40,992 nt of DNA from Pseudomonadota bacterium (lineage in GTDB: Bacteria > Myxococcota_A > UBA9042). The notes under the pieces were generated by a model. The model did no database searches. It saw nothing but the letters and a program-made list of their open reading frames with translations, and was not told where the DNA came from. Each line of letters starts with the position of its first letter. Position 1 is the stretch's first letter. The translations under genes and the position numbers were made by a program. Where the stretch lies: positions 1 to 40,992 of the forward strand of contig SXNM01000288.1 in the NCBI GenBank assembly GCA_005777155.1, in the 5' to 3' direction. This document shows positions 10,535-32,107 of this stretch, one piece after another.

Positions 10535-11875
10535 CTACAGCAGGAAGAGATGGCAAGCGGCGATGGCGGCGACAGCTCCAGCGGCGTCGGCGCACAGGCC
10601 CGCTGCCAGGGCCCAGCGGCCGCGGCGGACTCCCACCGAGCCGAAGTAGACGGCCAAGATGTAGAACGTCGTGTCTGTGGAGCCGGCGAGGGTCACAGCC
10701 TGTAGGCCAATCGCGGAGTCCGGGCCGTGGCGGGCCAGCAGCTCGCTGCAGACCCCGAAGGCGCCAGAGCCCGACAGCGGGCGGAGCAGCGCAACCGGCA
10801 GCACCTCGGGCTCGACGCCGAGCGGACGCAGCAGCGGGCCAACGAAGGTCACGAGGCCTTCGACCGCGCCAGAAGCGCGCAGCATCGCCACCATCGCCAA
10901 GATCCCCACCAGGGGCGCCACGATGCCCAAGATGGCCTGGAGGCCCTGGCGGCCGCCAGCGAGGAACGCTTCATATACCGGGACCTTGCGCCAGAGGCCG
11001 ACGACGATGATGCCGGAGATCAGCGCCGGCAGCAGCCAACTGGTGAAGCCGTCACCCACCACGAGCGTCGCCACAATCATCGCCAGCAACGCTGCGAGCA
11101 CGATGGGCGCCCGATAGCGCGATTCGGCGCCCTCGGTCGCTACAGCGTCTCCGGCAGCCAACGTGGCCGTCGGCGTCGGGGTCGCGGCGGTGGCGGCGCC
11201 ATCGAGGGATTCGCGATCGGCCGCGGCGGGAGGCGGCGTCGCTGGCGCTGGCCCCGACGTGGCCTCTATCAGCGTCTCCTCGACCACGATCGGCGCCGGC
11301 GACCAGCGCCGGCGCAGCACCATGGACGCTAGAATCGCCACGGCCGTCGAGGTCCCGGTAGCGAGCCAGACCGCTGGCAAGATCGCAGCCGGATCGCGCG
11401 CGCCGTGGGTCGCCCTCAAGGCCAGCAGATCGGTGGGCAACAAGGCGAGGCCGCTGGTGTTGATGGCGAGGAACATGCACATGGCGTTGCTTGCGACGTC
11501 GCCGTGGGGCGAGAGCTGACGGAGCCGCTGCATCGCCTGCAAGCCAAAAGGTGTCGCGGCGTTGCCGAGGCCGAGCAGGTTGGCCGAGAAGTTGAGGACG
11601 ATGGCGCCGAGCGCGGCGTCGTCGCCAGCGACCTCTGGGAGGAGGCGCCGCAGCACGGGACGCAGCGCGTGCGCCAGCCAACGCAGGCCACCCGCGCGCT
11701 CGACGATCGCTAGCAGGCCGGTGAAGAACACCAAGGCGCCGCAGAGGCCGATGGCGACCTCTGCCGCCTTGCGCGCCCCGTCGAGCGCTGCGCGGCCCAC
11801 CGCGGCGCCGTCGACGCCGCCTAGCGCCGCCGTCGCCACCGCGCAGAGGATCAGGAGCGCGAACGCGGTGTTCAA
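10535..11875 (-). CDS. Fused SpmA/SpmB-like nucleoside-recognition (Gate) domain membrane protein
   Basis: The N-terminal half resembles SpmA (..IGLCGALVFFTGLLAIVERAGGLRWL..VLNFSANLLGLGNAATPFGL..). The C-terminal half resembles SpmB (..LRASGAVEGLV..LLRPLSGSGAFG..GSTDTTFYILAVYFG..). The two halves are joined by an Ala/Pro/Thr-rich linker. The start is TTG (revcomp of caa 11873-11875) and overlaps the upstream gene's TGA stop (11872-11874). Confidence 0.75.
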   Translation of the reverse strand: MNTAFALLILCAVATAALGGVDGAAVGRAALDGARKAAEVAIGLCGALVFFTGLLAIVERAGGLRWLAHALRPVLRRLLPEVAGDDAALGAIVLNFSANLLGLGNAATPFGLQAMQRLRQLSPHGDVASNAMCMFLAINTSGLALLPTDLLALRATHGARDPAAILPAVWLATGTSTAVAILASMVLRRRWSPAPIVVEETLIEATSGPAPATPPPAAADRESLDGAATAATPTPTATLAAGDAVATEGAESRYRAPIVLAALLAMIVATLVVGDGFTSWLLPALISGIIVVGLWRKVPVYEAFLAGGRQGLQAILGIVAPLVGILAMVAMLRASGAVEGLVTFVGPLLRPLGVEPEVLPVALLRPLSGSGAFGVCSELLARHGPDSAIGLQAVTLAGSTDTTFYILAVYFGSVGVRRGRWALAAGLCADAAGAVAAIAACHLFLL

Positions 11876-14800
11876 CCGGCACCCCCAGGCTCGACCGCCG
11901 CGCCCGTCGTCACGCCGTCGCCACCATCCCCGGCCCGAGCGACCAAGGCCTCCGCGATGGACAGCGCCATCACCGCCGCCTCCGCCGAGAGCAGCGCCGT
12001 GCCCTCCGCGGTGTCGTCGAGCGCCGCCTGTAGCAGCGCGGCGTCGGCGCTGAGCGTCGGGAGCGGTAGCGGTCGCGCCACCTCATCAGCCTGCGCGCGC
12101 AGGGTCGCCGTCGCCTCGCCAGCGCTCAGCCGGCACGTCGCCTCCAGGTGGCCCGATCGCAGGCGGAGCGTCCGCGTGCTCGCCGACGCCGCGGTGTGGA
12201 GTTGCAGCCCGACGAACCCTCCGAAGAGCTCCAACTCGGCGCGCAAAGTGGAGCCATCGTCACTCCAGTACGCTTGTAGCACCGCGCGGTGGGCCACGAG
12301 CGCGGCGCCGACCTCGCCCTCCGCGACCGCGGGCGTCTGGTTCAGAAGCGGCACTGACGTCGATGGACCCGTGATCGCCCGCGCCCACGCCCAGGCCACC
12401 GCGAGATCGTGGACCAGGAGATCGATTACGGCAGCTGTCTGCGCCGCCGCTGCGACCGGCCGCGGCGGCTCCGCCCTCTCGACCTCGATGCGCCAGCCGA
12501 CACGTTCGCCCACAGGTTGTCGCCGCAACGCCCCGAGCCATGCGTCGGCCGCCGCCCGCGTCGCTGGGTCGAAGCCGCTGGTGTGGGCCACCCGCAGCTG
12601 CGCCGCTGGGTTCGGTGTCTGCGCCAGCAAGGCCGCAGCGTCCGCCGCGTCGGCCGCGAGCGGCTTCTCGATGAGCACCCGCAACCCTGCCGACAACAGC
12701 GGGGCGGCGACCGTGGCGTGCTGACCGGTCGGCACGGCGACCACGACAAGCGCCGCGCCGGCTGCTCGCAGCGCGTCGGGCAGCGACGCTGCCGGCTCGG
12801 CGTCGACGGCGACGACCCCCTCGGGCACACGCAGGCGATCGGCCGCCCCGCGCACGACGGCCAGCCGGCGCATGCCGAGCGCCTGGGCCGCCTGCAGGTG
12901 GCGGAGCCCCATCGGCCCGAGCCCGATGACCGCCACCGCCTTCGGCTGTGCCCGAAGCTCGCCGACACCATGCGCCGCGGCGTACTCGGCCCGGACGCCG
13001 AAGCAGCGAGGCTCTAGGGCGCAGTGGCCGCAGATGGACGCCGGCTTGACGCAGCCCTCGGACTCGCCGAGGCGCCCTGCTGTCGGCACCTGCCGCAGCG
13101 CACGTGGATCGAGCACCGTCAGCTCGGGATCGAGGACGCAGAGGGCAAAGCCACACGGATGGGCGAGGTCCAGCACGGTGACGCCGCGCTCGCGTGCCCT
13201 CGCGAGGCCGGCGCGGACCGCAGGCGCCAGGGCCGACAGCATGGGCAGCACATCGGGATCGAGCGGACCGCGGTCGATGGCGCTCGCCACCGCCAGCGTC
13301 AGCTGAATGCCCGCCTGGCCTGGCGCGGGCACGAAGCGGTCGGCGCAGAGGTCAATGAAGTCTGACAGTCCCGCCACATTGACCCGATTGAGCACGTGGT
13401 TGACCACTACTCCGACGCCGGCAGCCAACAGCGCCTTCACCCCGGCCAGCGTCCGCACGAAGGTGCCAGGCGCGCCCGTAATAGCGTCGGAGGTCGCGGC
13501 GTCATGGCCGTGCAGCGAGACCAGCGCCTCGGTCAGCCCAGCCGACCGCAGCCGCAACGCCAAGTCGCCCTCGGCGAGCCGGACCGCGTTGGTCTGCAGC
13601 TGGACCCGCCCGGCACCGGCCTCCCGCGCCGCCGCACGCAGCGCCGGCAGATCAGCGCGCAGCGTCGGCTCGCCACCGGTGAACGTGATGGTCTCGGCGC
13701 TTGGGTCGGGGCTTGCCGCCAGCGCCGAGGCGATCGCCGCGACGACCGCCTCAGCGGGCATCTCCCCCGCCTCGAAGTCGACCCAGCAGAAGCGACAGCG
13801 CTGGTTGCAGGCGTGGTTGATGCGCAGGACGTGCTCGCGCCGCCGCGCCGTGGTGGCCGAGCCGTCTCTGACGTCGACGCGGTCGGTGCGTACGCCGTGG
13901 CGCGTACGCTCTTGGACGCCAGCCCAGAGCGCGCGACGCTCGTCGGTCAGGGGCGAGATCACCGCCGCCCCCAAGGCCGCGGCAAGACTCCGCTCGACGC
14001 CGTCGCAGCGCTCTCGCAGCGCGCAGACGGCGCAGCCGGGCAGCTGGACGAAGCGCGCGCCATCGCCGACGCGGCCGCCTCGCAACAGGCCCGCCAGCGG
14101 CCGAGGCCGCTCGAAGGCGCAGGGGTGGAAGCCTCGCGAGGGATCGGCGCGCAGCGCGATGCCTGCCGCCTGCAGCGCCGTCGCCGCCCTTTGCAGTCCC
14201 GGCTCTAGAGCCCGCGGCGGCGGGTGCCACGCTGCTGGCGCGAGCGTCGGGACCCTGGGCGTCGTCGCGCGATCGTGGCGCTCTGCGGGCGGCGCGCTGC
14301 GGTACGGGTGGACGATGAGGGCGTCGACGCGACCCATAGCGACGGCGCGGCGCACCAACGCGTCGAGCTCGGCCACCACATCCGGCAGCGCGACCACGGC
14401 CAACTCCAGCCGGACGCCCGCCGCGACCGCGGCCTCAGCCCCGCTCCAGGCCAGCGCCAGGGCCTCCGGTCGCCGCATGCGGACGCCGACCGCGTCTGCT
14501 TCGCCGCCACCGAGCCCGACGCGGACGCCATGGAGACCGGCCTGCTGTAGCTGACTGCAGGCGCTTGGTGACAGCGCGAAACCGTTGGTCTCGAGCCAGA
14601 CCTCCGCGACGCCAGCGGCGCACGCCGTCCGGATCAGCGCCGGCAAGCGTCGGTACAGCGTCGGCTCGCCGCCGCCGAGGACCAGTCGCCTCGGCGCGCC
14701 GCCGTGACGTCGCTGAAAGGCCTCGAGCACCGCCACGAGGCGGCGGAGCGGCCCGTCGCCCTCGCGGTCGTCTGCTGGGCCCGGCCGGTGCTCGAAGCAG

Positions 14801-14892
14801 TGCGCGCAATGGGCGTTGCAGGAGTCGATGACTCGGAAGGGCAGCTCGCCGGCGGCGGGGTCGGGCGGCGCGGAGGGCACCTCGGCGTCCAT
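11872..14892 (-). CDS. Tri-domain protein: radical SAM core 1 + radical SAM core 2 + Gfo/Idh/MocA-type NAD(P)-binding oxidoreductase domain
   Basis: CX3CX2C no. 1 is CNAHCAHC (14797-14820), with GGGEPT downstream. CX3CX2C no. 2 is CNQRCRFC (13786-13809), with TGGEPT downstream. Each core is followed by a CX2CX5C motif: CAVCALRERC-DGV (14005-14034) and CGHCALEPRC-FGV (13003-13032). The C-terminal ~355 aa starts with Rossmann motif KAVAVIGLGPMGLRH and contains ..LIEKPLA.., as in Gfo/Idh/MocA. ATG at 14890-14892. All motifs were verified by reverse-complementing the DNA. Confidence 0.8.
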   Translation of the reverse strand: MDAEVPSAPPDPAAGELPFRVIDSCNAHCAHCFEHRPGPADDREGDGPLRRLVAVLEAFQRRHGGAPRRLVLGGGEPTLYRRLPALIRTACAAGVAEVWLETNGFALSPSACSQLQQAGLHGVRVGLGGGEADAVGVRMRRPEALALAWSGAEAAVAAGVRLELAVVALPDVVAELDALVRRAVAMGRVDALIVHPYRSAPPAERHDRATTPRVPTLAPAAWHPPPRALEPGLQRAATALQAAGIALRADPSRGFHPCAFERPRPLAGLLRGGRVGDGARFVQLPGCAVCALRERCDGVERSLAAALGAAVISPLTDERRALWAGVQERTRHGVRTDRVDVRDGSATTARRREHVLRINHACNQRCRFCWVDFEAGEMPAEAVVAAIASALAASPDPSAETITFTGGEPTLRADLPALRAAAREAGAGRVQLQTNAVRLAEGDLALRLRSAGLTEALVSLHGHDAATSDAITGAPGTFVRTLAGVKALLAAGVGVVVNHVLNRVNVAGLSDFIDLCADRFVPAPGQAGIQLTLAVASAIDRGPLDPDVLPMLSALAPAVRAGLARARERGVTVLDLAHPCGFALCVLDPELTVLDPRALRQVPTAGRLGESEGCVKPASICGHCALEPRCFGVRAEYAAAHGVGELRAQPKAVAVIGLGPMGLRHLQAAQALGMRRLAVVRGAADRLRVPEGVVAVDAEPAASLPDALRAAGAALVVVAVPTGQHATVAAPLLSAGLRVLIEKPLAADAADAAALLAQTPNPAAQLRVAHTSGFDPATRAAADAWLGALRRQPVGERVGWRIEVERAEPPRPVAAAAQTAAVIDLLVHDLAVAWAWARAITGPSTSVPLLNQTPAVAEGEVGAALVAHRAVLQAYWSDDGSTLRAELELFGGFVGLQLHTAASASTRTLRLRSGHLEATCRLSAGEATATLRAQADEVARPLPLPTLSADAALLQAALDDTAEGTALLSAEAAVMALSIAEALVARAGDGGDGVTTGAAVEPGGAG

Positions 14893-15000: not shown

Positions 15001-16167
15001 ATGGACGTGATTGTCTGTCATCGCTCGGTCCGACTGGCTGCGGTCTTGACCCTGCTGTTGCTCGCGGCGTGCAGCGACCCCGCGACCGGTCCCGCCGGCC
15101 CCGATGGCAACGCGGGCGGCGGAGTGGATGCCGCTGTTGGCGATGGCGGTGGTGTCGGCGATAGCAGCGGCGACAGCGGCGGCGCCGGCGGCGGTCGGGG
15201 CGACGCTGGCGGTCCGGCCTCTGACTGCTCTCCAGCCGCGCGCGCAAAACGCTCCTGGTCGGTGCTCAAGGAAGGCACCGCGTCTGGCGTGTGGATGGCC
15301 GGCGCGCTGCTCGCCGATGGAACTCCGCTGCTCGTCGGTGGGCAGGCGAATCTCGGCGCCATCGCGACCCTTTCTGGCGCCGAGCTGACGACGGCGACCA
15401 TCGCCCAAGGGCCCCTGCTAACTTGGGCCTCGGTCGCAGCCGATGGCACCGCGCTTGTCGTCGGCAATGGGCGCCGCGCCCTCTGGCGAACCGCCGCCGG
15501 CGTCTGGAGCGAAGAGGAGCTGCCAGGTGGCGACAAGCTCTGGGGATGCCTACAGTTTTCAAAGGATGACGCCTGGGCCGTTGGCGCCGACGAGCCGACC
15601 AAGGACCAGTTCGTCCCTGTCGTGCTGCGCCGCACCGCCAGCGGTTGGAGCAAGGCGTCTTTGCCGACGCTGTCGAAGTCGCGTGCCCAGGCGCAGGTGT
15701 TCAAGATCGACGGCCACGACCCGAATGACGTCTTGGCTGTCGGCGACACCGGTTTGGCGCTGCGCTGGGATGGCAAGGCCTGGACCGAAGAGGAGACCGG
15801 CGTGGACGCCAACCTCGTCACCGTCCGCAAGCTCCCTGGCGGCGCCTACGTAGCGGTCGGTGGGACCGCTGCTGGGCTGGTGATGACGCGCAAGGATACT
15901 GGCGGCTGGTCGAAGCTGCACCAGCCGATGGTCGGTGTCTCTGGCGTCGACGTCTTCGGCGACCAACTCATCGTCGCCGGCAACTATGGCTGGATTGAAC
16001 ACGTCGCGCTGGCGGATGGCAAAGCCGTCGAGGTCGATGAGCTGCTCACCACCGATGTGCTCCACTTCGTGCTGCGTTTGCCCGACTGCGGGGCGCTCGC
16101 TGGCGGCGGCAACCTGCAGGTGTGGCCGAATCCGATGCAAGGGACATTGCTGCGTTTTGGGCCTTGA
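15001..16167 (+). CDS. Lipoprotein, probable beta-propeller (Ycf48/BNR-like repeats)
   Basis: Signal plus lipobox ..LTLLLLAAC (Cys24). A Gly-rich linker follows. Repeated units of the type ..AWAVGADE.., ..VLAVGDTGLALRWDGKAW.., ..YVAVGGTAAG.., ..LIVAGNYGW... Confidence 0.65.
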   Translation: MDVIVCHRSVRLAAVLTLLLLAACSDPATGPAGPDGNAGGGVDAAVGDGGGVGDSSGDSGGAGGGRGDAGGPASDCSPAARAKRSWSVLKEGTASGVWMAGALLADGTPLLVGGQANLGAIATLSGAELTTATIAQGPLLTWASVAADGTALVVGNGRRALWRTAAGVWSEEELPGGDKLWGCLQFSKDDAWAVGADEPTKDQFVPVVLRRTASGWSKASLPTLSKSRAQAQVFKIDGHDPNDVLAVGDTGLALRWDGKAWTEEETGVDANLVTVRKLPGGAYVAVGGTAAGLVMTRKDTGGWSKLHQPMVGVSGVDVFGDQLIVAGNYGWIEHVALADGKAVEVDELLTTDVLHFVLRLPDCGALAGGGNLQVWPNPMQGTLLRFGP

Positions 16168-16419
16168 GTCGCGTGGCCGCGGAGATGCGATCGGTCTGCG
16201 TCGCCTCGGGGAGCTACATGCGTTGGGTCGTGTGCCCTGTTGTGAGCCACGGCGCTTGCGGATAGTGCCGGGACTTGGCTTGAACGCGGTGTTTTTGGCG
16301 TCGGCGGGGTCCTTGCGGCGGTCGCTCGGTGAAATATCGTGCGGTGAAGTGGCGGCGGAATTCGGGAGCCTGGGTTGATTCGGGAGTCTCGCTTGCGAGT
16401 GATTGCGGTGTTTAGTCGT

Positions 16420-16584
16420 TTGAGACGGTCGTTGGACCGTTTCAACGGCGGGATTTGGTGGAGTTGAGACTGTCTTGAGGTTGTCTTGTGACCGTCCTAC
16501 GACCGTTTTGAGACCGTTTTGAGACCGTCTTGAGACCGTTTTGAGACCGTCTTGAGACCGTCTTGAGACCGTCTTGAGACCGTC
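16420..16584. repeat. Tandem array of 15 units of an 11-bp repeat, consensus TTGAGACCGTC (Y at position 11)
   Basis: Read directly from the sequence. Units 16464-16584 are, in order: ttgagactgtc, ttgaggttgtc, ttgtgaccgtc, ctacgaccgtt, ttgagaccgtt, ttgagaccgtc, ttgagaccgtt, then ttgagaccgtc four times. Four degenerate units lie in phase upstream (16420-16463, starting ttgagacggtc). Each good unit contains the 9-bp palindrome AGACCGTCT. The last copy completes the 11-bp perfect palindrome GAGACCGTCTC. Confidence 0.95.
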
Positions 16585-16737
16585 TCCGGTCCCGATGGGT
16601 GGGCCGCTGACTTTATGGCTTACGCGTCGGGTTCTGCCGGGTTGTTGTTGATAGGTGACCGTTTTGTAGCTGGCATCGCCGATTGGCATGGCGATTGCTT
16701 CCTGCAGCGCGGGACCTCTGCCGATGGGTCCTGTCGA

Positions 16738-16892
16738 CTACCCCGTTGGCCAGGGGTAGAGACCGCAGGCCGGGTCGCTGGCGGCACCCCGGGAAACCGG
16801 GGCAGGTGCCGATGGTTGACTGCGCGCTTGCGCAGGTGGGGAGGGCGTCGGGTTTCGCCGGGACTGTCCCGGGAGGGCCCCGAGATCGGGGC
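16738..16892. other. Cluster of five consecutive GC-rich hairpins in non-coding DNA (candidate structured RNA or stacked terminators)
   Basis: Hairpins read from the sequence: CTACCCC/GGGGTAG (16738-16759); CCCCGG-GAAA-CCGGGG nested in GGCA/TGCC (16783-16810); CTGCGC-GCTT-GCGCAG (16820-16835); CCGGGA-CTG-TCCCGG (16858-16872); GCCCCG-AGAT-CGGGGC (16877-16892). Strand and function are unknown. Confidence 0.3.
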
Positions 16893-16965
16893 GGCCATTG
16901 CCTGATTCCGTCGGGGGCTCACCTGACAGTGCCAACCGCGCGCCCTGAAGTCGCAGCGAAGTGCG

Positions 16966-21867: not shown

Positions 21868-22047
21868 CGCGACCCGAGTGGCCGAAAGCCGTCGCCCCAT
21901 CGACCGACCCGGCAGCCCACCCTTGGCGCCGCTCGCCGACGGCTATCGTCCCCATTGACTGCGGCCCTCGCCGAGGACTCTGATCTTCTCGGACGCCGCC
22001 AGCAACCAAGCAAGCACGGACTGCCAGCGGCCACTCAGGAGCCAACG

Positions 22048-22395
22048 ATGAACGACGCCACCGCCTGCGACCCGCTCGCCGCAGACCCGCCCCCAAGCGA
22101 CCGGTTGGCGCTCCACCCAGCGGTCGCTTGGCGTCCAGTCGCCGGCGAGATCTTCCTCGTGACGCCGGATCGCGCCATGCACCGCGTCGCCTCGCCCACC
22201 GGCGCCGCCATCGTGAAGGCGCTGGCTGGCCCGGGCGTCGAACGCGGCGACCTAATCGTGCAGCTGACGCAGCGCTTCACCGGGCATCCCTCAGCCATCG
22301 CCGCCGACGTCGACGCGTTCTTGGCCTCGCTCACCGCCGCGGGCATCCTGCGAACCGTCCCGGCTGCTCCTCACGCGCCCCTGAGCGCGCCTTGA
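22048..22395 (+). CDS. PqqD-family protein (stand-alone RiPP recognition element type peptide chaperone)
   Basis: 115 aa from ATG 22048, preceded by AGGAG (22037-22041, 6-nt spacer). The PqqD-like pattern is ..LALHPAVAWRPVAGEIFLVTPDRAMHRVASPTGAAIVKALAGPGVERGDLIVQLTQRFTGHPSAIAADVDAFLASLTAAGILR... That corresponds to a beta-strand region, then the helices 'iw..l.g', then 'Dv..Fl..L...gl'. Confidence 0.75.
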   Translation: MNDATACDPLAADPPPSDRLALHPAVAWRPVAGEIFLVTPDRAMHRVASPTGAAIVKALAGPGVERGDLIVQLTQRFTGHPSAIAADVDAFLASLTAAGILRTVPAAPHAPLSAP

Positions 22396-22576: not shown

Positions 22577-25500
22577 ATGATGCGCTCGACAATCAAGTCC
22601 GGCCTTACGACTTGGCTTCCCGCCTCAGAGAGCCATGATTCGGCGCAGAACCAAGCCAAACGTATCAGCCTCCGCGCGCTGCCCTTGCTCGGGCTCCTAC
22701 TGGCGCTGAGCGTCGCGCTCTCCGGCTGCGGCGATGACGATCCGGTCAATCCCGGCGGGGCTGACTCCGCCATCGACGGCGGGGGCGACGCGGGTGCCGA
22801 CGGCGGAATCGACGGCGGCGGGCTCCAGGTCGACAGCACCGGTCCGCAGGCAAAGCTCACCTTCAACATCGCGCACGCCAAGGGCAATGGCTTGGTCGAC
22901 CCGGTCAACGCCCAGATCCTCGACCTAGCGCTCGACAAGTACCCTGGCCTCACCGATCCGGGCTTTCAGGTCGATGTCCAGATCAACGGCATCAACGTGC
23001 CGGACGGCACCGAGATCGACGTCCAGCTCGACGGCAAGTCTGTCGGCAAGGTGACCATGACCGGCGGCACCGCAGAGCTCGCCAAGGTCACGCTGCAGTG
23101 CACCGCGTCGCAGAGCGCGATCTCGGTCCTCGCGACGGTCACGGGCAACCAGGTCAGCGCCACCAAGGCCGCCAAGCTCGACTGCGGCGATGGCTGCACC
23201 GCGGCCCTGGTTCCAGTCAATGGCTGCGTCACCGAAGACGCCGATCCTGCGACCCCCGGCCTCCAGGCGACCTTCCAGGTCACCTCAACCACACCTGACT
23301 GCACCCACGCCCAGTTGCGCGTCACCGACGTCAGCGGCAAGGTTCAGGAGACGCCCAAGGTCTCCCTCGTCGCCGGCAAGGCCACCGTCACCGCGACCGT
23401 CGCCGCCGACACCACGGGCGTCGTCAATGAGACGGCGACCGTCGTCGGCATCGTGATCGACGAGGCCCACGCTGAGCGTCCCAAAGGCGAGTCCGATGCG
23501 CTGGCTGTGCCAATCACCACGGACGCCCCGAGCGTCGCCATCGTGGCGCCCGACAAGGCGCAGCTGACCCTCGCCGATGACGCCGATGGCAAGGACGCCA
23601 ACGGAGTCCAGGTCACCATCGTCGGCACCGCGACCACCATGAAGCCGAGCGATATCGAGAAGCTCGTCGTCAAGGTCGATGGCGTTGAGGTCGGCAAGAC
23701 CTCGATGAAGCTCAACGGAGGCTTCGAGTTCGACCTCAGCTTCGCCACCTCCAAGACGTGGGAGGTCACAGTCGAGGCCACGAACGCATGCGGCCTGTCC
23801 GCCACCGGCAAGCGCAGCTACAAGGTTGCGGCCTCCAAGGCCAAGCTTAAGATCAGCTCGCCGTCCAGCGGCGCCGTGCTCAACGCCAAGAACGACACGG
23901 ACCTGTCGACCGCGACCGTCCTCGAGACCAACTTCGAGGTCGCAATTCAGGGCGCGAACGATGGCGACAAGGTCTCGGTGTTCTGCCGCCCGAACCAGGC
24001 CGGCAGCCCGTATCCCATCACGCCCAACGGCACAGCGACCGTCACTGGCGGCGCCGCGACGCTCTCCCTACCGCTGTCGATTGATGCCACCGCGGTCGGC
24101 ACCAGCGTCGTCTGTGTGGCCCGCGACAACGGCGCCAACCCAGCCGAGAGCCCCGAGGTCGCCCTGACCGTCGGCCTGCCGCCGCCCTGCATGACGATCA
24201 AGCTGCCGAAAGAGGGCTTCGTCACCGCGAGCGCCACCTTGCCCGTCGGCGCGACAGCCACCGGCCTGGAGGGCGCGGTCGTCGAGGCCAAGCTGGCGCT
24301 GGTCGACGGAGCGACGTTGATCGACACGCCGATCGGCAAAATCACCGGCGGCGCCTTCACCGGCGCCCTGGCGCTGACCATTGGCAGCCCACCGCTGCCG
24401 ATCCCGCACGGCACCTATGTCCTCTCGCTCAACGCCGCGGACACGTTCGGCAACGCCGTCAACACCGGCAACTGCTCGACGCTGAGCCGCACCATCGTCG
24501 TCGACCGCAAACCGCCCCTGCTCGCGCTCGCCATTCCGACCAAGCAGGTGCTGGATCCCGCCGGCGACGCCGACTCTGACGTGGTGTCACCTGGCTACCA
24601 GACCAAGGTCGTGTTCAGCGTCGGCGGTGAGAGCGACTTGACGACCTCGACCGTCTGCGCCAGCGTCAACGGCTTCGCGCTGCCTTGCCAGACCATCACG
24701 GGCAACGGCCAGTTGACCTTCTCCTCCGTCACCCTGCAGCCCGGCGCCAACATCATCGTCGCCACGGCCAAGGACGCGCTCGGCAATGTCAGCAAGGACG
24801 TCATCGTCAACATCACGCTGCAGTCCAACGCCGCGATGGTGAAGTGGATCAAGCCTGCGACCAGCACCTTCGTCGCCACCGACTCGCTGCAGCTCGAGAT
24901 CAGCGTCACCGACCAAGCGCTCGGCGTCCCGGTCAACGGCGCCGCGATTACCCTGATCCTCAATGGCAAAGAGACCCCCGGGGTTGTGTTCTCGGCCAGC
25001 GGCAACGGTCTCTACAGCGCCAAGGCGACTGGGCTGGCCTTGGGTCCGAACACCCTGCAGGTCACGGCCTTGCCGGTCGGCGCCGCCACCGAGGGCGTCA
25101 GCCCGCAGCTGACTGTGACCCGCAAGGGCGCTTCGCCGACCATCGCGCTGCAAGGCCTGACGAACGGGGAGATCGTCAACCTCGCCAAGGCCTCATGCAT
25201 CGCTGGCCTCACCGACTGCATCACCAACCTCAACGCAGTGACCACCAACGCCGCTGACGGCAGCACCGCCACGCTCGTCGTGACCTGCGACCTGGCGGCG
25301 GCGGTGACGGCCACCGCCACGGTGACCGGCGGCGTGGCTGGCTTCTCCTTGATCACGTTGCCGCACGGCGCCAAGTGCACGCTGCAGGTCAGCGTCATCG
25401 ATGAGGCCGCGCAGCAGGCCCTCGGCGCCCCGATCGCCGTGTCGATCGACCGCGTCGCGCCGGTGTTCTCGGTGTTCTCGCCGCTGACGACCGCGCTGCT

Positions 25501-28500
25501 CGCGCTCTCCGATGCCAACGGCAACCCCGCCGACGGCGTCCAGGTCGCCACCAACGTCTCCCTCAGCGGCCTCGAGAAGGACCGCCCCATCGTGCTGCAA
25601 GTGTTCAACGACGGTGGCACCAAGGCCTTCGAGGCCACCTCCGCCATGCCGAGCACCGCCACCGCCGGCCAGGCCGTGTCGGTCAACTTCGGCGTCGTGA
25701 CGTACCCGGCTGGCAAGACCATCAAGCTCACCATCACGACCAGCGACCTGGCCGGTAACCCCGCGACCTTCACCGCCACCTTCGTTGTCGTCCCAGACGC
25801 CGCGGAGGTCCGCTTGATCGGCCCGACGTTCGTCGACCCGAAGTCGTGCTCCGTCCACTCCGACTGCGGCACGTCGATCTGCCAGACCGGTAAGTGCACG
25901 ATCCCATGGAACAAGAACACGTTTCGCCAGTTCACGGTCATCGGTCTCGGACTCCTGACCGGCGCCAAGGCGCGCATCTGCTCGGACAACGGCAACGTAA
26001 CCGGGCCGAGCTGCGCCACCGCTGGCACCAAGGAGATCGTGGCACCGACGGACTTCGACGGTGTCCAGGTCGCGCTGCTGGCACAGACGCTCAACGAGGG
26101 CCTGCACACGCTCCACGCCGAGGTCCTGCCGGCGGGCGCGAATGCCGCAACGGCGTCGAACTGGCTGACCTCAATCGCCGCATCGGCGACCGGCAGCAAG
26201 ACGCGCCGCATCTTGTACGACGCGACGCCGCCCGTGGTGGCCGCGGTGACCGCCCCGGCAGCCGCCGGCGTCCCCGCCAAGTGCCTCGCGCGGGCCTCGC
26301 AGCTCTCCTCTGACGGCTTCGCCCCCGGCGGCGTGTTCGTCTTCGCCGCCACCATCGCCAACGACGACGGTCAGGTGGCCATCCTCACTGGCGGGACCAA
26401 GGTCGGCACCGCCAGCTCGGTGTCCAAGGTGGCGTCGGTGCAGATCCAGCTCGCTACCGAAGGCTCGACCACGCTGACCGCCGTCGCCACCGACAGCGTC
26501 GGCAACGAGAGCGCGCCCTTCAATGTCGGCACCTTTGACGTCAATACCATCCCGCCGATCGGCGCCTTTGCCGCCCCCGGAAAGTCCACGCTCATCGTTG
26601 GCGACTCGCTTGATGTCCGCGTCACCTCGCAGTCGACCGACGTCGAGGCCCAGCCTGTGACGCTCAAGGACGGCGACAAGACGATCGGCTCGGTGGCGAT
26701 GACCAAGGGCGAGGCGCTCTTCTCCGACAGCCTCTACAAGACGCTGACCGACGGCACCCACACGTTGACGGCGATCGTCACGGACAGCTGCGCCAACCCG
26801 GCGACCATCGCGACCTCTCCAGCGTTGGTGACGGTGGACACCTCGGCGCCGACGGCCTCGATCTCTGGGCCGACCCAGGGCCAGACCTTCGGCGACGCCA
26901 ACGACGCCAAGGCCGACGTCAGCGGCTACCAGATCGCCGCCACGTTCACCACCGGCGGCGGCACGTCGTGGACGCTTGACCTCGGCACCGACTGCGACGC
27001 GGCCTTCGCCAACTGCGCTGGCTTCGCTGGCGCCGGCAGCGGCAACGTCAGCAACGATGGCGGCGCCGAGCCGACGCAGTTCGTGACCATTCCGTTCGGC
27101 AAGTCCAAGCAGTACGTCCTGCGCCTGACCGTGACCGACGCCAATGGCAACAAGACGGTTGTGGACCGCGGCTTCATCGTCGAGCTCTCTGGCTGCTTGG
27201 TCGGTCTGACGGGCCTGCCGGCCTCTGGCATCGTCAACACCAGCGCCTGCGCCACCGCCGGCCAGAACTGCGCCAGCGCCAAGCTCACGCTGACTGCCTC
27301 ATTTGTCGGCCCCTGCGGCACGGTCAGCGCGGTCGAGCTGCGGGTCGATGGCGCGCTCTCCGCCTCCAAGGCGCCGACGGGCAGCGCCGCCGGCTTCGAT
27401 CTCACCGTCACCGGCGGCACGAGTCCCAAGGTGGAGGCCAAGGTCCTTGAGGGCGCGACCTCCAAGGGCACCAGCGGCGAGACCACCATCAAGGTCGACC
27501 TGACCCTGCCGGTCGTCAGCTTCATCGCCGGCACCGTGCTGGGCGTCGCCACGCCGGCCAACACCGCGCCCGCCCTGGCCGGCAAGGCCAAGGACGCCGA
27601 CGGCGCCAAGAACGGCCACCAGGCCCACCTGTTGCTGCAGGTGGTCGACGCCGGCCTGACGGGTGGCAAGCTCACGAGCGTGAAGGAGACGGTCGGCAAC
27701 AGTGACCTCTCCAGCTCGCTCGGCCTGCCGCTGACCTACGCTGCGAACGGCACGGTGACGACCGAGCTGAAGTTCGTGACGGCGAAAGAGGACGCCAACA
27801 ACACCATCGAGGCCACCGTGGCGGACGCCGCCGGCAACGTCGGCAAGGCCACGCTGACCCTGGAGGTGGACTGGACCTCGCCGGGCGCCGTCACCCTGAG
27901 CGACCTCAAGGCAGCCGACCTCAATGCCCGCCGGCCCTTCGCCAAGCTCAGCTTCAAGGCACCGGCGGAGGATGGCAATTCAGGAGGCGCTGCGGCCAGC
28001 TACGAGGTCGTCTACTCGCGCTCGGCGATCGCGAGCACCACCGAGTTCGAGGCCGCCTGCAAGGCGACAAGCCTGCCGAAGTCCGCCGTCCCGACGCCGG
28101 GCGCGCCGGGTGCCGACCAGGTGGTCGTGGTCGAGGGTCCCGACGGTCGCGCCGCTGCCGAGGCGTGCAAATTCGCGCCTCTGACCGACAACGGCGTCGG
28201 CAAGTACCACTTCGCCGTCCGCGCCGTCGATGCTGCTGGCAACGCAGGGGCGATCAGCAACGTCGTCTCGACCTCCGACCTCCGCCTGCGCTACGCCAAG
28301 ATCACCTCGGCGACGGCGCCCTGGAACACCGCCACCTCCTTCACCAACGTCGTCGGCGTCGGCGACCTCAACGGCGACGGGCTTGGCGACTTCGGCTTTG
28401 GCGGCAACACCAACACCAACAAGTTCTGCGTCGTCTACGGTCACGCGGACAGCAGCTTGCAGGTGCCCGAGGTGAACATCGCCGCCGCCTCCGCCGCGAC

Positions 28501-29734
28501 TCACACCTGCTTCGACAACTTGACGGCGTTCGGCCTGTCCACGGCGGCGCCTGTCGACATCAACGGCGATGGCATTCACGACCTCGTGGCCGCGAACGGC
28601 CATGGCACGGCGTCCGCGCCGCGCTCGGTGCTCATCTTTCTCGGCGAGAAGGGCAAGCCGATCACCACGACGGCGGCGGTCACGATCTCCAACATCTCCC
28701 ACTCGTTGACCTATGGCGTCCGCGCGTTGACCTCGGCGGGCAACTTCAACGGCGACAAGACCTCGGGTGGCAAGCCGATCGGCGACATCGCCTTCACGAC
28801 CCGCCCAGCAGGCGCCGTGACCATCGACCGCGTCATGGTGGTTCCGGGCAACGCCGCGTGGTCGACCAGCGCACCCGTCACCATCGACATCAACGACGCA
28901 GCCGCGTTGGCGACCCACAACGTGCTCATCATCACGCAGCCGGCTGCGGCGGCGTCTGTCAGCTTTGGCTCCTTCCTGGCCGGTCCAGGCAACGTCCTGA
29001 CCGACGCCGGCGACGCCCAGTTCGATGACCTGGTGATTCGCCGTCCCTCGCCGACGGAGGGTCTGTTCGTGGTCAAGGGGCGAACCTGGACCGGCACGCA
29101 GACCCTGACGACCACGCCGACGCTCGATGGCTCGGGCTCTGCCGACGCGACGTCGATTCGCATCTTCGGGCCGCAGTACGGCACCAACCTCAGCGGCTTC
29201 GGCTTCGCCACCGACGTGTCGTTCGACGGCGACGCGATCCCGGACCTCGTCGCCACCGAGGCGGAGACGGGCAAGCCGACGGCGATTGTCTGGATGCGGG
29301 GCTCGCTGCTCAGCAAGGCGATTGGCACATCGGTCAACGTCAAGGGCACGCTGGTGGCGGGCTCGTCGGCGCCCCAGGTGTTCTCGCACGCCTTCGGCCA
29401 CGCGGTCGTCGACTATGGGCGCCTGACGTCCAGCGTCGGCGACTTCGGCGACCAGGGCGGCGGCGCCAAGGCGTTTGTCCACGGCTTGCCGTCGTGGACG
29501 CCGGGCGGACAGCTCACCGTCAGCGTCCGGCAGCCCGTGACGCGCGTCGACGGGTTGGTGAAGGACATCGCGTCATTCCACCACGCTGACTTGGTGATCG
29601 GAAATCCCTTCACCCCTGGCTTGGCGACCATGGGCAACGCGACGCTCAATGGCGTTGGCGACTTCAACGGCGATGGATTCCAAGACTTCGTGGTGGGCAC
29701 GAGCACCACCGGCTACCTGATCCTCGTCTACTGA
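22577..29734 (+). CDS. Giant (2385 aa) surface lipoprotein: tandem Ig-like/Big-type domains, fibronectin-III-like segment, C-terminal FG-GAP/VCBS (integrin-alpha-like) repeats
   Basis: Lipobox ..LALSVALSGC (Cys codon 22727-22729). Long Thr/Val/Ala/Gly-rich beta-type repeats, each ~90-100 aa (..TAKDALGNVS.., ..TSDLAGNPAT.., ..ATDSVGNESAP.., ..VTDANGNKT.., ..VADAAGNVGKA.., ..AVDAAGNAGA..). A small Cys-knot, CSVHSDCGTSICQTGKC, lies at about 25834-25910. C-terminal FG-GAP motifs GDLNGDGLGDFGFGG, VDINGDGIHDLVAANG, FDGDAIPDLVATE, GDFNGDGFQDFVVGTS. Confidence 0.85.
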   Translation: MMRSTIKSGLTTWLPASESHDSAQNQAKRISLRALPLLGLLLALSVALSGCGDDDPVNPGGADSAIDGGGDAGADGGIDGGGLQVDSTGPQAKLTFNIAHAKGNGLVDPVNAQILDLALDKYPGLTDPGFQVDVQINGINVPDGTEIDVQLDGKSVGKVTMTGGTAELAKVTLQCTASQSAISVLATVTGNQVSATKAAKLDCGDGCTAALVPVNGCVTEDADPATPGLQATFQVTSTTPDCTHAQLRVTDVSGKVQETPKVSLVAGKATVTATVAADTTGVVNETATVVGIVIDEAHAERPKGESDALAVPITTDAPSVAIVAPDKAQLTLADDADGKDANGVQVTIVGTATTMKPSDIEKLVVKVDGVEVGKTSMKLNGGFEFDLSFATSKTWEVTVEATNACGLSATGKRSYKVAASKAKLKISSPSSGAVLNAKNDTDLSTATVLETNFEVAIQGANDGDKVSVFCRPNQAGSPYPITPNGTATVTGGAATLSLPLSIDATAVGTSVVCVARDNGANPAESPEVALTVGLPPPCMTIKLPKEGFVTASATLPVGATATGLEGAVVEAKLALVDGATLIDTPIGKITGGAFTGALALTIGSPPLPIPHGTYVLSLNAADTFGNAVNTGNCSTLSRTIVVDRKPPLLALAIPTKQVLDPAGDADSDVVSPGYQTKVVFSVGGESDLTTSTVCASVNGFALPCQTITGNGQLTFSSVTLQPGANIIVATAKDALGNVSKDVIVNITLQSNAAMVKWIKPATSTFVATDSLQLEISVTDQALGVPVNGAAITLILNGKETPGVVFSASGNGLYSAKATGLALGPNTLQVTALPVGAATEGVSPQLTVTRKGASPTIALQGLTNGEIVNLAKASCIAGLTDCITNLNAVTTNAADGSTATLVVTCDLAAAVTATATVTGGVAGFSLITLPHGAKCTLQVSVIDEAAQQALGAPIAVSIDRVAPVFSVFSPLTTALLALSDANGNPADGVQVATNVSLSGLEKDRPIVLQVFNDGGTKAFEATSAMPSTATAGQAVSVNFGVVTYPAGKTIKLTITTSDLAGNPATFTATFVVVPDAAEVRLIGPTFVDPKSCSVHSDCGTSICQTGKCTIPWNKNTFRQFTVIGLGLLTGAKARICSDNGNVTGPSCATAGTKEIVAPTDFDGVQVALLAQTLNEGLHTLHAEVLPAGANAATASNWLTSIAASATGSKTRRILYDATPPVVAAVTAPAAAGVPAKCLARASQLSSDGFAPGGVFVFAATIANDDGQVAILTGGTKVGTASSVSKVASVQIQLATEGSTTLTAVATDSVGNESAPFNVGTFDVNTIPPIGAFAAPGKSTLIVGDSLDVRVTSQSTDVEAQPVTLKDGDKTIGSVAMTKGEALFSDSLYKTLTDGTHTLTAIVTDSCANPATIATSPALVTVDTSAPTASISGPTQGQTFGDANDAKADVSGYQIAATFTTGGGTSWTLDLGTDCDAAFANCAGFAGAGSGNVSNDGGAEPTQFVTIPFGKSKQYVLRLTVTDANGNKTVVDRGFIVELSGCLVGLTGLPASGIVNTSACATAGQNCASAKLTLTASFVGPCGTVSAVELRVDGALSASKAPTGSAAGFDLTVTGGTSPKVEAKVLEGATSKGTSGETTIKVDLTLPVVSFIAGTVLGVATPANTAPALAGKAKDADGAKNGHQAHLLLQVVDAGLTGGKLTSVKETVGNSDLSSSLGLPLTYAANGTVTTELKFVTAKEDANNTIEATVADAAGNVGKATLTLEVDWTSPGAVTLSDLKAADLNARRPFAKLSFKAPAEDGNSGGAAASYEVVYSRSAIASTTEFEAACKATSLPKSAVPTPGAPGADQVVVVEGPDGRAAAEACKFAPLTDNGVGKYHFAVRAVDAAGNAGAISNVVSTSDLRLRYAKITSATAPWNTATSFTNVVGVGDLNGDGLGDFGFGGNTNTNKFCVVYGHADSSLQVPEVNIAAASAATHTCFDNLTAFGLSTAAPVDINGDGIHDLVAANGHGTASAPRSVLIFLGEKGKPITTTAAVTISNISHSLTYGVRALTSAGNFNGDKTSGGKPIGDIAFTTRPAGAVTIDRVMVVPGNAAWSTSAPVTIDINDAAALATHNVLIITQPAAAASVSFGSFLAGPGNVLTDAGDAQFDDLVIRRPSPTEGLFVVKGRTWTGTQTLTTTPTLDGSGSADATSIRIFGPQYGTNLSGFGFATDVSFDGDAIPDLVATEAETGKPTAIVWMRGSLLSKAIGTSVNVKGTLVAGSSAPQVFSHAFGHAVVDYGRLTSSVGDFGDQGGGAKAFVHGLPSWTPGGQLTVSVRQPVTRVDGLVKDIASFHHADLVIGNPFTPGLATMGNATLNGVGDFNGDGFQDFVVGTSTTGYLILVY

Positions 29735-29756: not shown

Positions 29757-29942
29757 ATGGCAAGCGAAAACCGTGACCGTGACGCAACAGTAGGAAACCT
29801 CAGCGGGGATCCTGCGGCGACGCCGTGGGTGGCACCGACCTTGGAGTCCAGCCCGCCGCGCGACTGGGCCGAGCTGCAGAGCTGCACCTTTGGGCCGGGC
29901 TGTGATCCAGAGAACGACCCACCGGGCGATGCCTGCGTGTAG
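29757..29942 (+). CDS. Small ORF (61 aa), candidate RiPP precursor peptide with a Cys/Asp/Pro-rich C-terminus
   Basis: MASENRDRDATVGNLSGDPAATPWVAPTLESSPPRDWAELQSCTFGPGCDPENDPPGDACV. AGGAGAG at 29746-29752 lies 6 nt (from GGAG) before ATG 29757. The ORF starts 22 nt after the giant gene's stop and ends 43 nt before the HPr-kinase-like gene. Third-position GC (~72% by my count) is lower than in neighbouring genes, so coding status is not certain. Confidence 0.5.
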   Translation: MASENRDRDATVGNLSGDPAATPWVAPTLESSPPRDWAELQSCTFGPGCDPENDPPGDACV

Positions 29943-29985
29943 GCAGACGGCGCCCAGGCTGGAGCGCAGGCGCTCGGTCCCGGGA

Positions 29986-30918
29986 ATGGTCAGTCCGATG
30001 GCAGAGGTAGGCCGACAGAGGAGTTGGGCCTTCGGCGACACTGGAGAAGGCCGGACCCTGATCCGTGGACTCTGGCACACTCCGACGAGCGCCTTCGAGA
30101 AGCGAATCGCGACCATGCGGGTGCTCGACGCGGTCGTGGCGTTCGACGCCCATGATGAACGCTTCGAACGCGCCCGTTGGCACGACGCCCCCGGTGACAC
30201 GCCCCCCTGCGTCGCCGAAGTGCGCATCACGGCCGGCCCTCGACCGGACTGGGCAGCTGGCGGCGAGGCTTGCGAGCGGCTCGATGGCGGCGGCTACCTC
30301 TTCCGGGCCCAAGGCGGGCGCTTGGAGTTGGCAGCGAGCGGTGAGTCGGCGCTGGCCGAGGTCTGGGATCCCGGCACCAAGTGGGACATCATCTTCCATC
30401 TCTGGCGCTTAGGCTGGCGCTGGCTCCTGCACGAATGCCAGCGGCGTGGCGCGCTGGAGCTGCACGCGGCGTCTTTCCTCGACGGCGACGGTGCGTGGAT
30501 CGTCGCCGGCGACTCCGGCGCTGGCAAGACCACCCTGTGTGGCCGGCTCGACCCTGAGGTCCTCCTCAACGAGGAGTTCGCGCTCGCTGCCCCGACTCGC
30601 GCCGGCGGCTACGAGGCCTGGTGGTTTCCTCACGCCCGTGCGCCGACCGAGCCCCGACCGCCGAGATCGCCGCTGCGAGGGATCGCCTATCTGACGCCGC
30701 GCCGCGATCGGACGGCGGCGCAGCGCCTGTCGCCTCCGGCGGCGCTGGCGTGGCTCTCGGCTCATGCGCTGGGCCCGCTCGATGCGTCGCCTGAGCGCTG
30801 GCTGGAGTCGGTGGCGACGATGGCACTGAACGTGCCGGTCATGGCGCTGGACCACCACCTCGGCAGCCCGGTCGCCGCCGTGGCTGCGGCCCTGCGCGCG
30901 GCGACGGAGGTCGAGTGA
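29986..30918 (+). CDS. HPr-kinase-like P-loop protein (HprK C-terminal-domain fold; probable peptide/protein kinase)
   Basis: ..LELHAASFLDGDGAWIVAGDSGAGKTTLCGRL.. matches the HprK C-domain P-loop pattern (h-h-h-GDSGxGKS/T); P-loop at 30508-30531. Start taken at ATG 29986 (alternative 29998), because track start 29890 would overlap the small ORF. Stop TGA 30916-30918 overlaps the next gene's GTG. Confidence 0.6.
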   Translation: MVSPMAEVGRQRSWAFGDTGEGRTLIRGLWHTPTSAFEKRIATMRVLDAVVAFDAHDERFERARWHDAPGDTPPCVAEVRITAGPRPDWAAGGEACERLDGGGYLFRAQGGRLELAASGESALAEVWDPGTKWDIIFHLWRLGWRWLLHECQRRGALELHAASFLDGDGAWIVAGDSGAGKTTLCGRLDPEVLLNEEFALAAPTRAGGYEAWWFPHARAPTEPRPPRSPLRGIAYLTPRRDRTAAQRLSPPAALAWLSAHALGPLDASPERWLESVATMALNVPVMALDHHLGSPVAAVAAALRAATEVE

Positions 30919-32096: not shown

Positions 32097-32107
32097 GCGC
32101 CGAGCCG

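Follow-up and report, generated by a model that had tools for sequence, protein, structure and literature searches.

The stretch from position 1 to 40,992 of contig SXNM01000288.1 (NCBI GenBank assembly GCA_005777155.1; GTDB lineage Bacteria, Myxococcota_A, UBA9042), hereafter the window, encodes a 1006-residue protein in which two complete radical S-adenosylmethionine (rSAM) modules are fused with a sugar dehydrogenase of NAD(P) type from the Gfo/Idh/MocA family. The gene (11872-14892, minus strand) is real, and the fusion is real and recurrent in Myxococcota. By its sequence, the protein belongs to the radical SAM superfamily twice over and to the Gfo/Idh/MocA family once, and is not a SPASM, MoaA, BlsE, HxsC/HxsC4, AhbC/D, PqqE, Tes, or viperin protein. 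By analogy with the enzymes it most resembles, we propose, at a probability of roughly one in three, that it could be a self-contained enzyme in which two radical steps are combined with hydride transfer by NAD(P)H, its substrate being a small hydroxylated compound of the kind of sugars, nucleoside sugars, or nucleoside diphosphate (NDP)-sugars.

Gene and domain architecture

The open reading frame (ORF), re-read from the DNA, runs from an ATG start, with a Shine-Dalgarno GGAG 7 nt 5' of it, to a TGA stop; an earlier first-pass annotation had correctly placed a single polypeptide here, leaving its strand unstated. GC content in the window is ~71-72%, and at codon positions 1, 2, and 3 of the ORF it is 0.80, 0.58, and 0.86, a coding-type pattern that no other long ORF at 11872-14892 exhibits. 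Pfam detects Radical_SAM in two stretches (E 1e-34 for the whole protein) and GFO_IDH_MocA once (E 6.8e-12), values that place both domain matches far beyond chance. An AlphaFold2 model of the full chain, computed on an alignment of 30 family members (A1), has a mean pLDDT of 86.4 and a pTM of 0.72 and consists of two beta/alpha modules, a flexible linker (residues 328-348), and a Rossmann plus beta-sheet domain; a second model, of residues 1-648, reaches a pLDDT of 84.6 and a pTM of 0.77. On these four lines (ORF, GC pattern, Pfam, and model) the whole of 11872-14892 is annotated as rSAM module 1, rSAM module 2, and Gfo/Idh/MocA oxidoreductase.

Two radical SAM modules

Both halves of the rSAM region contain the features of the radical SAM superfamily (PF04055), namely a CX3CX2C motif, a GGEP-type motif, and a partial TIM barrel; beta/alpha elements alternate over residues 16-196 of the predicted model, and the best Pfam Radical_SAM stretch is residues 359-504. 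The N-terminal module (residues ~15-325, 13918-14850; all features of the protein lie on the minus strand) is supported by the first Pfam stretch, by BLASTP of one half against the other, by a neighbor-joining (NJ) tree, and by NCBIfam. Its CX3CX2C motif, CNAHCAHC (residues 25-32, 14797-14820), provides the predicted SAM-[4Fe-4S] ligands C25, C29, and C32 and is at least 90% conserved in A1. The GGEP SAM-binding motif (residues 74-77, 14662-14673) has an invariant G74, with G75, E76, and P77 at least 90% conserved, and T102-N103 corresponds to the TN ribose motif. The auxiliary motif CAVCALRERCDGV (residues 287-299, 13996-14034) reads C287-x2-C290-x5-C296-DGV; C287, C290, C296, and G298 are invariant, as is C258 (14119-14121), the fourth cysteine of predicted auxiliary cluster 1.

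A linker of low model confidence (residues ~326-350, 13843-13917; pLDDT below 50 at residues 328-332 and 343-348) leads to the C-terminal module (residues ~351-648, 12949-13842), the better conserved half, which is located by the best Pfam stretch and by NCBIfam and PDB matches. The second CX3CX2C motif, CNQRCRFC (residues 362-369, with C362, C366, and C369; 13786-13809), is invariant in alignments A1, A2, and A3, and the second GGEP (residues 406-409, 13666-13677) is likewise invariant in the family alignments. Auxiliary motif 2, CGHCALEPRCFGV (residues 621-633, 12994-13032), reads C621-x2-C624-x5-C630-FGV, and its cysteines and G632 are invariant in A1. So is C585 (13138-13140), the fourth cysteine of predicted auxiliary cluster 2; C580, close to it, is ~90% conserved. 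All of the CX3CX2C, GGEP, and CX2CX5C-(D/F)GV motifs were recovered on re-translation as the first-pass annotation had reported them, as was the spacing of about 260 residues from each CX3CX2C to its auxiliary motif (262 residues in the first half and 259 in the second); the fourth auxiliary cysteine of each half had been missed.

Each half contains seven conserved cysteines in A1, three for the SAM cluster and four auxiliary, the latter in the pattern C-x28/35-C-x2-C-x5-C-x-G. Four invariant auxiliary cysteines leave room for one auxiliary cluster per half, which predicts up to four [4Fe-4S] clusters per chain. A SPASM domain, by comparison, is defined by the seven-cysteine motif CX9-15GX4C ... 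CX2CX5CX3C ... C together with a model match, and has two auxiliary clusters. Pfam gives no SPASM (PF13186) match in the 1006-residue protein at E up to 0.1, and CX2CX5C is followed by D/F-G-V with no cysteine at +4, so that the X3C of SPASM is missing. Thus, of the earlier description of each half as Twitch/SPASM-like, the SPASM part falls away, and Twitch-like, with one predicted auxiliary cluster, would be the better label. The auxiliary-cysteine segment is also a region of lower pLDDT in the predicted model.

The internal tandem duplication proposed in the first-pass annotation is borne out by alignment of residues 1-330 to residues 331-651, which match over 257 positions at 30% identity (BLASTP, E 2e-9), from GGEP through the C-terminal cysteine motif. 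In an NJ tree of the separated halves, the C-terminal halves form one clade, whose sister is a group of single-module rSAM proteins of ~450 residues, while the N-terminal halves diverge faster across the family; the same subfamily structure is found in both sets. This pattern points to one old tandem duplication followed by co-divergence of the halves. In subfamily A, to which the window protein belongs, the N-terminal half has kept CX3CX2C, GGEP, the TN ribose motif, and all four auxiliary cysteines; a degenerate half, raised as a concern in the first-pass annotation, is not seen by motif in this subfamily, as both halves keep cluster ligands and GGEP.

The dehydrogenase module

Residues ~649-990 (11923-12948) comprise a Gfo/Idh/MocA oxidoreductase with a Rossmann domain and a C-terminal beta-sheet domain, as the first-pass annotation had recognized. 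The assignment is based on Pfam (GFO_IDH_MocA, PF01408, 46.6 bits with a gathering threshold of 24), on PDB matches 7bvj and 3c1a, and on Foldseek, and the motifs of the family are intact. The predicted dinucleotide-binding loop, GLGPMG (residues 657-662, 12907-12924, re-translated), has G657 in 29 and G659 in 28 of 32 fused members. EKP (E742, K743, and P744; 12661-12669), part of the string LIEKPLA re-translated from the DNA, includes the predicted catalytic Lys; its three residues are conserved in 27, 23, and 31 of the 32, respectively. D824-LLV-H828 (12409-12423), which had gone unnoticed before, is an acid-x3-His predicted catalytic pair, with an acid at the first position in 22/32 members and His at the second in 24/32. 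Both of these latter features are also supported by a HMMER alignment to GnnA, in which EKP falls on the EKP of GnnA and DLLVHD on its DLMIHD. The predicted model contains a six-strand sheet at residues 871-932. Strand beta2 ends in Arg here and in Ser-Pro in another clade, with no Asp or Glu; because no acidic residue ends this strand, the module probably prefers NADP(H).

Recurrence of the architecture

The closest ortholog (P0002, 78% identity) has the same architecture on 11 contigs in ENA and NCBI assemblies. Further fused relatives occur in other assemblies at 56, 53, 52, 42, 35, and 29% identity, and more distant ones were drawn from JGI, ENA, Logan, and NCBI. We called and clustered the ORFs of 88 family loci plus the window and annotated the neighbors with Pfam and NCBIfam. 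Among these loci (numbered L001 onward), L005 and L006 contain a 630-residue double-rSAM gene overlapped at its end by a 325-residue GFO_IDH_MocA gene, and in L019 a separate dehydrogenase gene likewise lies directly downstream of the double-rSAM gene. Together the fused and split forms constitute a Rosetta-stone link and are strong evidence that the double-rSAM and dehydrogenase activities would work together; in subfamily A their association is obligate.

An assembly or frameshift artifact fusing two or three genes, a possibility the first-pass annotation had itself put forward, is hardly credible. The window is a metagenome-type contig and split forms exist in nature (L005, L019), but the codon-position GC pattern is continuous along the ORF, the 78% ortholog and the distant fused relatives come from independent assemblies, and the fused domain is present in 44 of the 192 family proteins collected (about a quarter, using a Hidden Markov Model (HMM) of the C-terminal region). 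An HMM from alignment A2 recovered a distant fused clade that was missed by phmmer with the dehydrogenase domain of this protein alone.

A word-indexed homolog search returned 41-49 proteins, a large undercount relative to an exhaustive profile search with the double-rSAM part only (622 profile positions), which found 3233 representative clusters at E <= 1e-30. The 150 strongest of these 3233 all fall below E 1e-113, and in most of them a single match spans the entire double module; in this search double-rSAM proteins form more than 150 clusters at 50% identity, nearly all from Myxococcota. Many family proteins are 920-1040 residues long, and 27 of the 32 long members checked have GFO_IDH_MocA. 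With one genome scanned for each species, at least 270 relatives emerged, again nearly all in Myxococcota. Carriers include Polyangiaceae, Nannocystaceae, Sandaracinaceae, Archangium, Minicystis rosea, Labilithrix, and Polyangium sp. 15x6; several paralogs per genome are common, frequently amid further rSAM genes. Subfamily A is a smaller group, found here only in uncultured metagenome-assembled genomes, with GGEP in both halves. The larger fused clade typified by P0037 includes a protein from a cultured strain, Polyangium sp. 15x6, encoded at L027:6900-9953 on NZ_JASBQE010000073.1. Minicystis rosea DSM 24000 encodes the double-rSAM form at ~5.97-5.99 Mb of CP016211.1.

The first-pass annotation did not recognize a characterized example of this architecture, and that stands: no relative is characterized, every NCBIfam match being far below its cut-off, and no curated family model or solved structure covers the double-rSAM(-dehydrogenase) proteins. 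Nor did we find a paper on the family in the literature on double, tandem, or fused rSAM proteins, on rSAM with Gfo/Idh/MocA and myxobacteria, or on His-Xaa-Ser (HXS) systems. The architecture is, however, no one-off, with dozens of divergent clusters in Myxococcota, and JGI automatically labels it 'radical SAM enzyme/predicted dehydrogenase'.

Larger fusions (1283-1581 residues) also occur, with an added N-terminal extension of ~500 residues or a DUF483 region. In P0086, P0095, P0136, P0155, P0163, and P0172 (1430-1580 residues) the double-rSAM core follows an unannotated N-terminal extension of ~500 residues, and some of these proteins carry a C-terminal GFO_IDH_MocA or a weak DUF483 match.

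Comparison with characterized enzymes

Foldseek matches of the residue 1-648 model are led by BlsE, DesII, SkfB, GDGT-MAS, MoaA, and viperin, in agreement with PDB sequence matches for the rSAM halves. The best of these are BlsE (PDB 7VOB; sequence E 2e-11, Foldseek E 4e-10), a cytosylglucuronate decarboxylase, and DesII (PDB 8HZV; Foldseek E 1e-9). Like the window protein, both have an N-terminal CX3CX2C and no leader-recognition domain. Identity is 21-24% over ~190-270 columns, and BlsE and DesII have a single module per chain and no fused dehydrogenase; the score on the BlsE model TIGR04466 is 75 bits, with a cut-off of 400. MoaA, the GTP 3',8-cyclase, is among the top NCBIfam and fold matches of both halves and likewise combines an N-terminal SAM cluster with a C-terminal auxiliary [4Fe-4S] cluster, but it has neither duplication nor dehydrogenase, and its auxiliary cluster has three Cys ligands, whereas the window protein has four invariant auxiliary cysteines per half. 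The MoaA models TIGR02666 and TIGR02668 give 111 bits (cut-offs 284 and 325). The best NCBIfam models are TrsS and MoaA for the N-terminal half (~45 bits) and HxsC4 for the C-terminal half.

Two rSAM activities are also used together in HXS systems, in which HxsB and HxsC are separate proteins and there is no dehydrogenase. The C-terminal half scores 82 bits on HxsC4 (NF038332, cut-off 500) and 59 bits on HxsC (TIGR03977, cut-off 268), both outside HXS membership, and the window encodes no HxsA or HxsD. Prokaryotic viperin (PADLOC pVip) matches only at profile positions 6-159 of 257, the rSAM core, and the viperin model NF038283 gives 75 bits with a cut-off of 180, which places the protein outside that family as well.

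As a precedent for a single enzyme that works with two rSAM domains, we found documentation only for FO synthase FbiC, a fusion of CofG and CofH that uses two 5'-deoxyadenosyl radicals in one overall reaction (PMC11917521). FbiC, however, joins two distinct paralogs without a dehydrogenase, whereas in the window protein a whole module with its auxiliary domain is duplicated in tandem; no CofG or CofH model is among the NCBIfam matches shown for it.

With the full-length model, Foldseek matches are dominated by the C-terminal domain. GnnA is at the top (E 5e-14, target-normalized TM up to 0.77), followed by 1,5-anhydrofructose reductase, DgpA, KijD10, levoglucosan dehydrogenase, and inositol dehydrogenases. 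GnnA (7BVJ), 1,5-anhydrofructose reductase (2GLX), KijD10 (3RC1), and the inositol dehydrogenases share the two-domain fold of the C-terminal 350 residues (Foldseek E 5e-14 to 1e-11, target-normalized TM 0.66-0.77) as well as the GxGxxG loop, EKP, and D-x3-H; they are free-standing enzymes at 17-21% identity, while the version in the window is fused behind two rSAM modules.

Proposed function and alternatives

In the proposed scheme, modules 1 and 2 are the duplicated MoaA/BlsE/DesII-like radical SAM domains and module 3 is the Gfo/Idh/MocA oxidoreductase. Each rSAM module would generate a 5'-deoxyadenosyl radical that abstracts hydrogen from a C-H next to hydroxyls; dehydrogenation, dehydration, or epimerization could follow, passing through a keto or enol form. 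Hydride transfer to or from the carbonyl so produced would fall to the fused dehydrogenase, and the fusion may serve to keep reactive keto intermediates on the enzyme. This logic would be akin to that of rSAM-plus-ketoreductase pairs such as AprD4/AprD3. In AprD4/AprD3, and in BtrN versus NeoA, the keto-sugar formed by radical chemistry is reduced by an enzyme that uses NAD(P)H. Pairs of the AprD4/AprD3 type are separate proteins with one rSAM module each, encoded in antibiotic gene clusters, unlike the window gene, around which there is no aminoglycoside-type cluster.

A sugar or nucleoside substrate class is suggested by the nearest folds, by the lack of a peptide-recognition domain, and by weak hints from context. 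The nearest rSAM structures act on a nucleoside sugar (BlsE), a TDP-sugar (DesII), GTP (MoaA), and CTP (viperin), and the nearest dehydrogenases are a UDP-GlcNAc 3-dehydrogenase (GnnA), 1,5-anhydrofructose reductase, and a TDP-sugar 3-ketoreductase (KijD10). There is no N-terminal peptide-recognition domain, as CX3CX2C begins at residue 25. The loose hints are a Gate protein, an FkbM methyltransferase, a thymidine kinase, a carbamoyltransferase, and a GH92 protein encoded near family members. The sugar and cyclitol analogy drawn in the first-pass annotation is thus consistent with the nearest folds, though short of proven.

Several observations weigh against this proposal. Across the 88 loci and the window, no substrate-defining neighbor is conserved in subfamily A, and only the dehydrogenase recurs between clades, so the sugar or nucleoside assignment rests on distant fold similarity (17-24% identity). 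The fold matches of the rSAM halves also include the peptide maturases SkfB, SuiB, and CteB. Among curated models, HxsC4 matches the C-terminal half best, and distant relatives adjoin HxsA4 peptides: small ORFs ending in 10-16 His-Gly-Ser (HGS) repeats are present in 6 of the 88 family loci. With such neighbors of relatives, a peptide or protein substrate is conceivable. In addition, the larger P0037-like fused clade has kept the N-terminal Cys triad and lost GGEP there, so two active radical sites may not be general across the family, and a preference for NADP(H) would follow from a single sequence position.

The main rival holds that the protein is a peptide or protein maturase, descended from and working like the paired HXS rSAM maturases; it would modify residues of a ribosomally synthesized protein encoded elsewhere, with the dehydrogenase oxidizing or reducing a side chain or attached group. 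HxsB and HxsC mature the HxsA protein, and the canonical HXS system is an antiphage system (PMC13128918); HXS systems have been reported almost only from Pseudomonadota. The HGS-repeat ORFs, of HxsA4 type (L008:9620-9928, L038:23101-23190, L043:8761-8895, L045:15884-15973, L056:4073-4216, and L064:6529-6627), come from loci of Myxococcota with many rSAM genes of one or two modules, and that of L008 lies between two double-rSAM genes and scores 119 bits on NCBIfam HxsA4 (cut-off 55), which suggests that these loci are a myxobacterial variant of the HXS system. Family members are also often found among other rSAM and SPASM genes. The HxsA4-linked members, however, belong to subfamilies B and C, which lack the dehydrogenase and are 30-35% identical to the window protein, while a six-frame scan for H-x-S repeated at least three times and Tandem Repeats Finder (TRF) detected no HxsA-type precursor in the window, and the subfamily A loci contain no HxS-repeat ORF. 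The HxsC4 and HxsC scores are far under their cut-offs, and the protein has no RRE or PqqD-like domain. To our knowledge, no Gfo/Idh/MocA enzyme acts on peptides. On balance we consider a maturase unlikely. Less likely still is a cofactor, tetrapyrrole, or lipid substrate, on which the halves would carry out two AhbC/AhbD- or NirJ-like steps, or a Tes-like C-C coupling of lipids, leaving a hydroxyl or keto group for the dehydrogenase to adjust. Models for AhbD, AhbC, NirJ, and Tes match both halves at 60-100 bits, and GDGT-MAS (7tol) ranks high in both the sequence and the fold matches of the rSAM halves, but these model matches are generic rSAM-core similarity far below cut-offs. Membrane-protein partners follow the gene (Gate in the window; a hydrophobic protein of 148-162 residues in L005, L010, and L091), and in several genomes it lies among housekeeping genes, beside priA or among nadC, birA, and coaX. 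A PLD-type phospholipid enzyme and a 3-beta-HSD-type NAD-dependent epimerase/dehydratase are encoded near subfamily B members; they belong, however, to a different subfamily from the window protein. A UbiA gene near L005, which might have linked the family to lipid or prenyl metabolism, proved to be heme o synthase (273 bits, above cut-off), an ordinary respiratory gene.

It is also conceivable, if doubtful, that only one rSAM module is catalytic and the other, probably the N-terminal one, is a structural or electron-relay pseudo-enzyme, a reading that would suit any kind of substrate. Faster divergence and lower scores on rSAM models mark the N-terminal halves; 28 family representatives, taken as the P0037-like fused clade, keep the Cys triad with a single GGEP; and in the window protein His rather than the usual aromatic residue precedes the third cysteine of the N-terminal triad. 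Most close relatives, however, have Phe at that aromatic position, and the N-terminal half in subfamily A retains its full set of motifs and auxiliary cysteines. A bolder extension of the main proposal would treat the fused double-rSAM proteins of Myxococcota as a new class of self-sufficient enzyme, in which two 5'-deoxyadenosyl radicals, formed at duplicated rSAM sites with four auxiliary cysteines each, and NADP(H) hydride transfer would act on one chain in a series of steps that is not known from any single enzyme. We regard this as a tentative idea, less probable than the proposal it extends. Its outcomes could be, for example, double deoxygenation, epimerization, or C-C rearrangement, on a nucleoside or NDP-sugar or on a protein that is glycosylated or rich in serine. 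The host bacteria would be aerobic, and no dedicated partner genes would be needed.

The protein is an uncharacterized variant built from known parts, and it is less a system new in kind than a good target for enzymology, well defined and foldable. Characterized proteins with two full rSAM modules are rare, and for the fusion of such a pair to an NAD(P) dehydrogenase of the sugar type we found no example among described enzymes. Solving the reaction would give a function to hundreds of genes labeled only 'radical SAM protein' and could reveal a new coupling of radical and hydride chemistry in Myxococcota, a phylum known for unusual chemistry that holds almost the whole family. It might also connect to the HXS antiphage maturases, through the distant relatives flanking HxsA4 peptides.

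Genomic context

Directly downstream of the fused gene is a gene for a 446-residue membrane protein with two Gate (nucleoside-recognition) domains (10535-11875, minus strand; Pfam Gate E 1.4e-19, two stretches). Read from the DNA, the start codon of this gene, TTG, and the stop codon of the rSAM-dehydrogenase gene, TGA, overlap as TTGA. The same arrangement is found in the loci of the 78% ortholog (L001, L002, and L009), and this partner is specific to the lineage. Beyond it lies a convergent gene for an FkbM-family methyltransferase; the locus of the 78% ortholog has the same neighbors plus a thymidine kinase. Other settings in subfamily A include a metallophosphoesterase gene, and in L011 a GH92 gene lies downstream of the fused gene. 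The neighbors of the GFO-less subfamilies B and C include genes for a class V aminotransferase and many rSAM genes, in addition to the epimerase/dehydratase and PLD-type enzyme described above.

In L011 and L012 a 1206-residue protein with Carbam_trans_N and Carbam_trans_C domains (NodU/CmcH/TobZ type, about twice the usual length) is encoded directly upstream of P0008 and P0009. Its gene shares 4 nt with the start of the double-rSAM-GFO gene and is preceded by a gene for a 513-residue rSAM/SPASM protein.

PADLOC was also consulted on an antiphage defense system, and we rejected this candidate, because it gives generic rSAM-core pVip matches alone and the neighbors have no PADLOC match. The UbiA of L008 has no NCBIfam match at E <= 1e-5, and the window contains no Rfam or tRNA match.

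The divergent neighbor of the fused gene (15001-16167, plus strand) encodes a predicted lipoprotein with an LLLAAC lipobox, a Gly-rich linker, and beta-propeller-like repeats. It has no Pfam, NCBIfam, or PDB match and was judged uninformative on substrate; a homolog is the divergent upstream neighbor of a subfamily B double-rSAM gene in L028. The lipoprotein gene is followed by an unusually long gap of ~800 bp between convergent genes (16168-16965), of lower GC content (0.64), within which an 11-bp tandem repeat, TTGAGACCGTC, occurs at 16464-16585 in ~11 copies (85% matches, TRF score 167). The period of this repeat is not a multiple of three.

Among the other family loci, L022, L034, L042 (Minicystis rosea CP016211.1), L049, and L072 contain a conserved module consisting of the double-rSAM gene and two further genes. 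One encodes a rSAM-like protein of ~900 residues without CX3CX2C (Pfam Radical_SAM E 2e-4), which may be a pseudo-rSAM partner, and the other a 655-residue protein with a SPASM-like segment ahead of the rSAM core.

The window also contains a second, separate set of peptide-maturase-like genes (29890-32521 and 21955-22395, both plus strand). At 29890-32521 these encode a ScmC/HprK-kinase-like protein of 342 residues (below threshold), a 393-residue rSAM/SPASM protein (30915-32096), and a 143-residue ORF, while the gene at 21955-22395 encodes a PqqD-like protein of 146 residues and lies just upstream of a gene for a giant surface protein. The latter (22577-29734, plus strand; 2385 residues, GC at third codon positions 0.90) has an N-terminus resembling that of secreted proteins or lipoproteins, carries Ig-like domains (Big_13/Big_3_3), and ends in FG-GAP repeats; it adjoins the same genes in the locus of the 78% ortholog.

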